Shown: piece after piece, positions 35,796 to 37,897 of the stretch
How positions within the stretch are numbered: the stretch's first letter is position 1
Layout: the number at the start of each line of letters is the position of its first letter
Assembly (NCBI GenBank): GCA_035221665.1
Contig: CM069147.1
Coordinates: 17,794,001-17,858,000 of the forward strand
Reading direction: 5' to 3'
DNA: 64,000 nt
Source: Okamejei kenojei
Taxonomy: Eukaryota
The notes under the pieces: model-generated
Seen by the model: the letters and a program-made list of their open reading frames with translations, nothing else
Told to the model about the DNA's origin: nothing
The model's database searches: none
Program-made: the position numbers and the translations under genes

Positions 35796-35949
35796 AATCG
35801 CATGCAAGAGTCACTGAAGTTATTCGACAGTATCTGTAACAACAAATGGTTTACAGACACTTCCATCATCCTTTTCCTTAACAAGATGGACATATTCGAA
35901 TCAAAAATTAAGAAATCACCACTAACTATCTGCTTCCCCGAATACGCAG
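35796..35949 (+). CDS. GNAO1: G(o) alpha alternative exon 7B (Gao2/GoB isoform, 154 bp)
   Basis: Acceptor ttctttctattgcAG and donor GTaaca. Translates [59 protein letters not shown] and DIFE are diagnostic of isoform B. Confidence 0.96.
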
Positions 35950-36057
35950 GTAACATGACCACAGCCAGATCACTAGGGATGGAATTGGGTGGGCTGGGAG
36001 AACAGAGGTTTTTTTAAATCATTTGTTAATTTATTTGAACTTATTTGGCTTAATGTA

Positions 36058-37637
36058 CAATGCCCTCCATAATGTTGGGGACAGACCCATCATGTATTTA
36101 TTTGCCTCTGTACTCCACAATTTGAGATTTGTAATAAAGAAAATCACGTGGTTAAAGTGCACATTGTCAGATTTTATTAAAGGGTATTTTTATACATTTT
36201 GGTTTCACCATGTAGAAATTACAGCTGTGTTTATACATAGTCCCCCCATTTCAGGGCACCACAATGTTTGGGACACATGGCTTCACAGGCATTTGTAATT
36301 GCTCAGATGTTTTTAATTGCCTCCTTAATGTAGGTAAGAGAGTTCCCAGCACCTAGTCTTTCCTCCAGTCTTTTCATCACCTTTGGAAACTTTTATTGCT
36401 GTTTATCAACATGAGGACCAAAGTTGTGCCAATTAATGTCAAAGAAGCCATTATGAGACTGAAAAACAAGAATAAAACTGTTAGAGACATCAGCCAAATC
36501 TTAGGGTTACGAAAATCAACAGTTTGGAACGTCATTAAGAAGTAAGAGAACACTAGTGAGCTTACTAATCGCAAAGGGACTGGCAGGCCAAGGAAGACCT
36601 TCACAACTGATGACAGAAGAATTCTCTCTTTAATTAAAAAAAATCCCCAAACATCTGTCCGACAGATCAGAAACACTTTTCAGGAGTCAGGTGTGGACGT
36701 GTCAATGACCACTGTCCGCAGAAGACTTCACGAACAGCAATACAGAGGTTACACTGCAAGATGAGAACCACTGGTTAGCCGCAAGATAGGATGGCCGGGG
36801 TACAGTTTGCCAAGAAGTACTTAAAAGAGCAACCACAGTTCTGGAAAAAGGTCTTGTGGACAGATGAGATGGACATTAACTTATATCAGAGTGATGCCAA
36901 GAGCAAAGTATGGAGGAGAGAAGGAACTGCCCAAGATCCAAAGCATACCACTCATCTGTGAAACACGGTGGTGGGGGTGTTATGGCCTGGGCATGTATGG
37001 CTGCTGAAGGTACTGGCTCACTTATCGTCATTGATGATACAACTGCTGATGGTAGTAGCATAATGAATTCTGAAGTGTATAGACACATCCTATCTGCTCA
37101 AGTTCAAACAAATGCCTAAAAACTCATTGGCTGGCGGTTCATTCTACAGCAAGACAATGATCCCAAACATACTGCTAAAGCAACAAAGGAGTTTTTCAAA
37201 GCTAAAAAATGGTCCTTGAGTGGCCAAGTCAATCACCCAATCTGAACCCAATTGAGCTTGACTTTTATACGCTGAAGAGAAAACTGAAGGGGACTGAAGA
37301 AGACACCCAGCAACTGGTGATGCCCATGAATCGCAGACTTCAAGCAGTCATTGCAGGCAAAGGATATGCAACAAAATACTAAAGATGACTACTTTAATTT
37401 ACATGACATTGCTATGTCCCAAACATTATGGTGCCCTGAAATGGGAGGACTATGTATAAATACTGCTGTAATTTCTACATGGTGATGCCAAAATATATAA
37501 AAATGCCTTTATTAACATCTGACAATGTGCACTTTAACCACGTGTGATTTTTTTTCTATTACAAATGTCAAATTGTGGAGTACAGGGGCAAATAAATAAA
37601 TGAAGGGTCTTTGTCCCAAACATTATGGAGGGCACTG
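36058..37637 (+). mobile_element. Tc1/mariner (DD34E, IR/DR type) DNA transposon, decayed
   Basis: TA on both sides (36056-57, 37638-39). ~220-bp TIRs (36058-~36277 and ~37415-37637), each with outer and inner direct repeats (ca[t/c]aatgtt[t/g]gggaca). Encloses a transposase pseudogene. Confidence 0.95.
36411..37382 (+). pseudogene. Tc1 transposase pseudogene
   Basis: MRTKVVPINVKEAIMRL... with an HTH region, GRPRKT, VLWTDE, KHGGGGVMAWAC, QQDNDPKH, WPSQSPNLNPIE and GYATKY*. Several in-frame stops, frameshifts and an internal deletion. D-to-E spacing reconstructs to 34. Confidence 0.93.
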
Positions 37638-37897
37638 TACATTAAGCCAAATAAGTTCAAATAAATTACCAAATGATTAAAAAAAACCTCTGTTCTCCCA
37701 GCCCACCCCAAACATTATGGAGGGCAGTGTACATCCTTTGATTGATAGTGCAAAATATGCCAAGTCATCGTGATCACCCTGTTCAAAAAATTTACTTCAA
37801 AGCAGTTGTGTTAAGGAATAGGACAAAAATATTGTTGGCATATAACCAAGTGGAAATGTCCAAAATAACCAATGAACCCCACGAGTCTATCGATGAT

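Follow-up and report, generated by a model that had tools for sequence, protein, structure and literature searches.

Template switching at inverted repeats, and the capture or lengthening of sequence at transposon ends, have been described in several systems. According to the available text of a study of DUP-TRP/INV-DUP rearrangements, the first switch takes place by homology at inverted repeats and is followed by NHEJ or MMBIR, which leaves 1-9 bp of microhomology or small insertions (PMC11293582). For the transposon Galileo in Drosophila mojavensis, it was proposed that a break in TIR2 was repaired on TIR1 with overshoot, by which the inverted repeat was lengthened (PMC3573991), and structural variation of Galileo was also the subject of another study (PMC4168063). 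In single-copy Pack-TIRs formed by gap filling, host DNA was found to be placed between the terminal inverted repeats (TIRs) by break repair with template switching (PMC8277862). A four-point template-switch model has been set out as well (PMC5453318); the string 'transpos' does not occur in the main text of that paper. In the portions of PMC8277862 and PMC4168063 that were available, an outward mirror copy of the host flank is not described. The literature searched on rearrangements of transposon flanks and TIRs, made up of main texts and covering little of the older P-element and Ac/Ds work, likewise yielded no outward flank mirror-copying at Tc1 TIRs.

The locus described here lies in a window of 64,000 nucleotides from Okamejei kenojei (assembly GCA_035221665.1, contig CM069147.1, positions 17,794,001 to 17,858,000), which contains exons 7 and 8 of a G-alpha gene twice each. 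The downstream copy of exon 7 (at about 47873) is identical over 50 amino acids to the top G(o)-alpha chain in the PDB, and the copy that adjoins the element is Gi-like; by exclusion, we take the latter to be exon 7B of GNAO1. The last two exons of human GNAO1 are likewise duplicated (PMC7599900). Inside the 7B-8B intron, a dead Tc1 copy carries at its right end a mirror copy of its own left host flank (Table 1), and this structure is a real, old, fixed and probably neutral scar. An earlier note on this DNA had claimed that the sequence following the right TIR is the reverse complement of the left flank, and the claim was re-derived as stated, with 69 of 71 bases matching (2 mismatches) and with the inverted copy beginning exactly at the TA. 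The second tip and the further TA of that note are also present, except that the tip measures 23 bp instead of about 22 bp and overlaps the flank copy by 2 bp. The C-run microhomology proposed for this junction was found as a shared overlap of 2 nt (CC), not of three, in a run of four C's. TA dinucleotides stand at 36056-57, 37638-39 and 37730-31, and the flank is present twice, the element body once and the tip alone three times, with a donor-to-acceptor distance of about 1.6 kb. The junction-anchored inverted-flank score of this locus is 128, and a score of 30 was reached by only 6 of 12,000 cross-pairs of unrelated flanks. The inverted arms at 35987-36083 and 37612-37708 extend over 97 nt and are 96% complementary. 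Together with the TIR pair (about 220 bp each, about 1.1 kb apart) they form a foldback of 295 alignment columns at 91%, with a loop of 1,140 nt, which starts 37 nt past the first intron base (35950), the arm beginning at +38; the foldback of about 290 bp, loop of about 1.1 kb and spacing from the 7B splice site given in the earlier note were thus borne out.

Table 1. Features of the scarred Tc1 locus, in window coordinates.
Feature	Position	Strand	Remarks
GNAO1 exon 7B, 154 bp	35796..35949	+	Part of the first duplicated terminal exon pair; 5' splice site at 35950
Left host flank and TA	35987..36057	+	Donor of the inverted copy; contains 3 of the 4 G-triplets past the 7B donor; ancestral form in L033
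Left TIR	36058..36280	+	Outer and inner direct repeats; private CAATG tip; left-type states at TIR positions 125, 132-133 and 174
Broken Tc1 transposase (stops, frameshifts)	36411..37379	+	HTH_Tnp_Tc3_2 at E=7e-14; weak HTH_SB and DDE_3; 14-18 stops per frame
Right (inner) TIR	37410..37637	-	Right-type states at positions 125, 133 and 174
TA and inverted left-flank copy	37638..37708	-	71 bp, 2 mismatches, one derived base per arm (polarised by L033)
Second TIR tip, 23 bp	37707..37729	-	Return junction with 2-nt CC overlap; bridged by single contigs
Original right TA and right host flank	37730..37750	+	Directly adjoins the left flank when aligned to the empty site L033

Three of the six translated pieces of the element had protein matches: HTH_Tnp_Tc3_2 above the cutoff, a weak HTH_SB and DDE_3 below the cutoff. 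The index copy itself is broken, and the DD34E spacing (34 residues from D to E) was read in 21 of 23 readable family copies; TA is found on both sides in 111 of 174. The inner end of the inverted repeat lies at a median of 218 (144 copies), and inner and outer repeats (D2, I6 and I8) were recognized at the index locus. IR/DR is the label that we assume for a Tc1 element with TIRs of about 220 bp and a direct repeat at each TIR end. In the whole genome, 3,808 exact CAGTG-type and 240 CAATG-type 27-mer tips were counted, corresponding to roughly 19,000 ends and about 5,000 two-ended copies. Left and right TIRs of the family differ at positions 125, 132-133 and 174, and many mixed haplotypes at these positions hint at conversion between TIRs. 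It was also observed that, at 37240-37300, the index copy is missing about 60 bp of transposase sequence relative to other family copies (alignment gap at element position 1240-1243). The idea that a CAATG left tip and a CAGTG right tip represented an inherited asymmetry, with the switch at the very tip, was rejected, given that 100 CAATG tips were distributed as 44 left, 43 right and 13 unplaced, and that the partner end was CAATG in 0 of 53 cases; the CAATG tip at the left end of the index element is instead a private mutation.

A search with the left flank returned three places in the genome, namely the two arms and a locus 478 kb away (L033). The latter is an old duplicate of the boundary where exon 7B gives way to the intron (118 of 148 aligned columns), located inside a short interspersed repeat, and it reads from left flank through a single TA into right flank without interruption; any palindrome around this TA is limited to 3 bp on either side. 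Therefore, the ancestral site was not palindromic, and the empty site that the earlier note had predicted from the flanks exists in the same genome as a paralogous fragment. Because the outer tip and its TA are properly joined, the element first integrated normally at this non-palindromic TA. L033 also polarises the two arm mismatches, one being derived in the left flank and the other in the inverted copy. The fragment itself (L033:1470-1632; G000:C17, about 18308250-18308412) is a piece of about 165 bp, comprising the exon 7B end, the donor site and the intron start, which predates the Tc1 insertion, is 12 bases longer in the G-run region and is likely a templated repair insertion.

Sequencing data were compared for 8 of 22 runs, comprising six genomic-type contig sets (organism labels A twice, B, C, D and E; six studies) and two RNA-type sets. 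In all six genomic-type runs (X1, X5, X6, X8, X11 and X13), the return junction was contained in a single contig, which ran from the inverted flank across the spare tip into the right flank and extended by over 31 letters to either side of that junction. The first junction was bridged less well, since in most contigs the stretches compared included under 31 letters of the inner TIR. Organism E had diverged furthest, with 13 substitutions and 7 gap letters over 276, and the derived base present in the left flank of A-D is missing there, so that the event predates the splits among the five organism labels. The presence of the return junction in one contig in six of six genomic-type runs thus indicates an old and fixed structure and no assembly error. 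Dating from arm divergence was attempted and discarded as too noisy (2/71 at the index locus and 7/61 at L104, versus 17/208 and 15/213 for the respective TIR pairs). At other loci, contigs of runs X1, X5 and X6 (window 37590-37638) show one TIR tip returning to an earlier TIR position, suggesting that more double-tip copies may exist in relatives; the 20-nt motif of such a double-tip joint, taken from one organism B contig, had no exact match in this genome.

The recurrence of the structure was evaluated in a family sample drawn from five DNA searches (best 30 loci each), the first 100 of the 240 CAATG tips and 80 of the first 100 of the 3,808 CAGTG tips; five CAGTG-tip loci were left out as partner ends or as already in the sample. 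Scoring was restricted to unique, two-ended copies with at least 120 bp of flank (n=174). A junction-anchored inverted flank copy was found in 3 of the 174, with scores of 128 (index locus), 87 (L104) and 46 (L159), the next best score being 17. Excluding the index locus, the frequency was 2/173 (95% interval 0.14-4.1%), when 0.06-0.09 cases were expected by chance from the 12,000 cross-pairs (P about 0.004). Since the two further cases both belong to the CAATG-tip subsample (2/61 versus 0/112, Fisher p=0.12), the rate of about 1% may be inflated. In addition, all three scarred copies have the CAATG tip (G-to-A at position 3), versus 4 of 65 unselected copies, and either the genome-wide rate may be well under 1% or the tip mutation may be linked to the scar. 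A rough estimate of the number of such sites for this family is 7-210, or fewer if they are clustered in CAATG-tip copies.

L104 lies in a LINE, and comparison with its homologs L187 and L131 showed that about 77 bp of right flank was exchanged for a 61-bp inverted copy of the left flank. The two TIRs of L104 have two rare variants in common (positions 31 and 35), which is the sole such case in the outer 120 bp among 172 oriented copies, while they retain their left- versus right-type states at 125 and 174. The common variants, taken with the type-specific states at 125, place a TIR-to-TIR switch between positions 35 and 125 and are direct evidence of such copying. At L159, comparison with the paralog L365 showed that 33 bp of right flank had given way to a 27-bp inverted copy of the left flank and 11 nt of filler. 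This short paralogous copy (G000:C7:50608353-50608422 and upstream), 160 kb from L159, keeps its empty site, and such local templated copies, 150-170 bp in length, may be frequent in the genome. The three scars are alike in that the left flank is the donor and the copy lies at the right end, starting at the TA; the spare 23-bp tip is found at the index locus only. Inward TIR extension was found in none of 144 copies, the top three candidates being indel effects. Four further loci with high flank scores (L144, L122, L176 and L230) were set aside as not junction-anchored, L144 and L122 proving on inspection to be separate repeat pairs, and a 7-bp symmetric run in the TG/TA-rich target of L233 was left uncounted. 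Two other irregularities were seen in the family. One copy of the 174 (L340) has a direct duplication of about 58 bp of one flank before the other TIR, which lacks a TA, and orphan TIR tips of about 25 bp (L121:702-727) and about 18 bp (L048:800-818) lie about 700 bp outward of a full TIR that has their orientation, with host DNA between.

The structure is, with good confidence, the scar of a two-step repair, in which a homologous switch to the left TIR was followed by an overshoot into the flank and an end-joined return. After insertion, a break or the stalling of a fork within the outer portion of the right TIR would have produced a free 3' end, which would have paired with the left TIR by fold-back or by invasion of the sister. 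Extension would then have proceeded through the tip and the TA into host DNA, for 71 bp at the index locus and for 27-71 bp over the three cases, and the released strand would have been end-joined to the right-hand fragment. This fragment would have retained 23 bp of TIR at the index locus and would have lost about 77 bp (L104) or 33 bp (L159) of host DNA. The earlier note had proposed a switch from the right to the left TIR, copying past the element end and a microhomology-mediated return (FoSTeS/MMBIR-like or aborted gap repair). At the DNA level this reading is supported by the non-palindromic empty site, the independent runs, the two further copies and the rare L104 TIR variants; its first switch, however, is better called homology-driven, from TIR to TIR, with microhomology at the second only. 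At the index locus, the TIRs have no derived variants in common (8 and 9 are private), and we infer TIR-to-TIR copying there from L104, the only locus at which it is displayed. The inner right TIR retains right-type states at 125, 133 and 174, so that copying from the left TIR, if any, must have started in its outermost 124 bp; the switch at the index locus would have been early or close to the tip.

The order of the repair steps and their trigger are likewise what we infer from the product, whose structure is compatible with fold-back following a break, with gap repair and with template switching at a fork. Transposase cutting or post-excision gap repair is a plausible trigger, to which we would give a chance somewhat short of even, and transposase-independent fork collapse, which yields the same product, is a possible one that we hold to be rather less probable. 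A position-blind break model predicts some inward TIR extension, in contrast with the 0/144 observed. The outward-only copying, together with an arm divergence at L104 that resembles its TIR divergence (7/61 versus 15/213), makes us lean, on small numbers, towards breaks at the element ends while the family was active. A stall at a G-quadruplex was weighed as a possible cause and rejected, given that the copying passed three of the four G-runs, unlike what would be supposed for a stall at their 3' edge.

Other origins of the structure were weighed against this two-step repair. An artefact of assembly or of fold-back reads is refuted by the junction lying within single short-read contigs in six of six genomic-type runs from six studies, and each arm moreover has one private derived base; its probability is negligible. 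Insertion at the centre of a pre-existing host palindrome has in its favour that target sites of the family are mildly symmetric (49% match at the third flank position), with 3 bp of symmetry at the index site. However, the empty sites of all three cases (L033 for the index locus, the LINE homologs for L104 and L365 for L159) are non-palindromic, which refutes this reading, and the spare tip would be left unexplained, so that it too is scarcely conceivable. In a more elaborate scenario, two insertions would have occurred at one TA, the first copy being lost imprecisely to leave a palindrome and the 23-bp tip, and the second landing at the palindrome centre. An ordinary inner element whose TIRs have no derived variants in common would thereby be accounted for, and orphan tips of 18-25 bp do occur near other copies (L048 and L121). 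Nevertheless, two hits at one TA are required and a template switch is still needed for the palindrome, the sharing of rare variants at L104 shows TIR-to-TIR copying directly, and the same right-hand junction was present in six of six genomic-type runs, with no intermediate in the stretches compared. This succession of events is therefore regarded as improbable.

The earlier note had proposed that the foldback could be an ADAR substrate affecting the GoB/GoA choice, a reading for which no support was obtained. In the form considered here, it would be an RNA regulator maintained by selection, its extra arm pairing with the G-triplets past the 7B donor, undergoing ADAR editing and shifting this choice. 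G-runs can act as intronic splicing enhancers. The arm starts at +38 and covers three of the four G-triplets, the foldback is the tightest of 20 inverted pairs of at least 100 nt in the window, and it was retained across the five organism labels. In addition, the predicted duplex strengthens from -317 kcal/mol for the TIRs alone to -434 with the flank arms (-110 for the flank arms on their own), and the arms differ at 2/71 positions versus 17/208 for the TIRs, a difference that is not significant (p=0.06-0.17). On the other hand, the TIR pair alone supplies most of the predicted duplex (-317 of -434 kcal/mol), similar scars occur at unrelated loci (L104 in a LINE, and L159), and clade fixation is expected for any old neutral insertion. 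The inverted arm has several substitutions and indels in organism E and few in B-D, with no compensatory change seen. Furthermore, the isoform choice is made between two terminal exon pairs, whereas the hairpin sits within the 7B-8B intron. On the unique arms, the RNA-type runs gave two reads in X22 (tip only) and none in X15, a matter of coverage rather than of editing. Pairing of TIRs in RNA has been found to trigger spliceosome-independent excision (PMC12779559, in its available text), which for an intronic copy would have no evident consequence. A selected regulatory role is thus unlikely; the product of the index event was most likely neutral, and the scar probably reflects an accident to which such elements are repeatedly prone, and not a means of controlling the gene.

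It is an evenly balanced proposition, in our judgement, that Tc1 elements with long TIRs routinely mirror-copy their own host flank, one-end breaks, probably made by transposase, being repaired on the other TIR. In that case, tens to hundreds of sites per genome would gain host-sequence hairpins, lose adjacent host DNA and have their inverted repeats lengthened outward. If true, this would constitute an undescribed and countable footprint class of cut-and-paste transposition, as well as a source of new intronic dsRNA, which here would mask G-runs beside a GNAO1 splice donor. The value of the finding lies in the recurrence rather than in GNAO1, with three cases in 174 copies, each having an in-genome empty-site reference. 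As a fossil record, these loci would document template switching set off by inverted repeats, on a scale a hundredfold below that of human disease rearrangements and with transposon ends as the trigger. If general, TIR elements would make host-sequence hairpins and small deletions beside themselves, which would bear on the evolution of TIR length, on how intronic dsRNA and small-RNA precursors arise, and on the integration-site fidelity of Tc1-type vectors.

As far as the available text of the cited studies allows the comparison, a likeness to DUP-TRP/INV-DUP rearrangements is found at the second junction, which there carries microhomology or a small insertion and here a 2-nt overlap or, at L159, an 11-nt filler. 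The homology of the first switch has its counterpart at L104 in the variants at 31 and 35, whereas no variants are common to the TIRs at the index locus. The repeats involved in those rearrangements are low-copy and 0.9-140 kb in size, while here they are 220-bp TIRs placed 1.1 kb apart, with a copied tract of 27-71 bp. An inverted triplication within duplications is, moreover, absent here, given that the return took place at or beyond the right end, only the 23-bp tip being present three times and the body once. In the four-point template-switch model, the event type 3-2-1-4 places the 2-to-3 fragment as a reverse complement, an order that the present locus fits, with 69 of 71 bases of its arm matching; that model, however, describes short-range switches of tens of bases at one fork, and the jump here covers about 1.6 kb and would be seeded by TIR homology (PMC5453318). 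Single-copy Pack-TIRs resemble the index locus in having captured host DNA without later transposition, the 71 bp being found at three places in the genome, but their capture sits inside the element body, whereas here the element's own opposite flank lies inverted outside a complete right TIR (PMC8277862). In the proposal for Galileo, as in the reading given for this locus, a break in one TIR would be repaired on the other and the tract would overshoot. However, this member of the P superfamily recruits internal sequence and so grows inward, while the Tc1 family studied here extends outward into host DNA (3/174) and inward in 0/144 copies (PMC3573991). By analogy with these systems, the anatomy described here may be viewed as a small-scale variant of inverted-repeat-initiated two-step template switching and as the outward counterpart of the Galileo extension.
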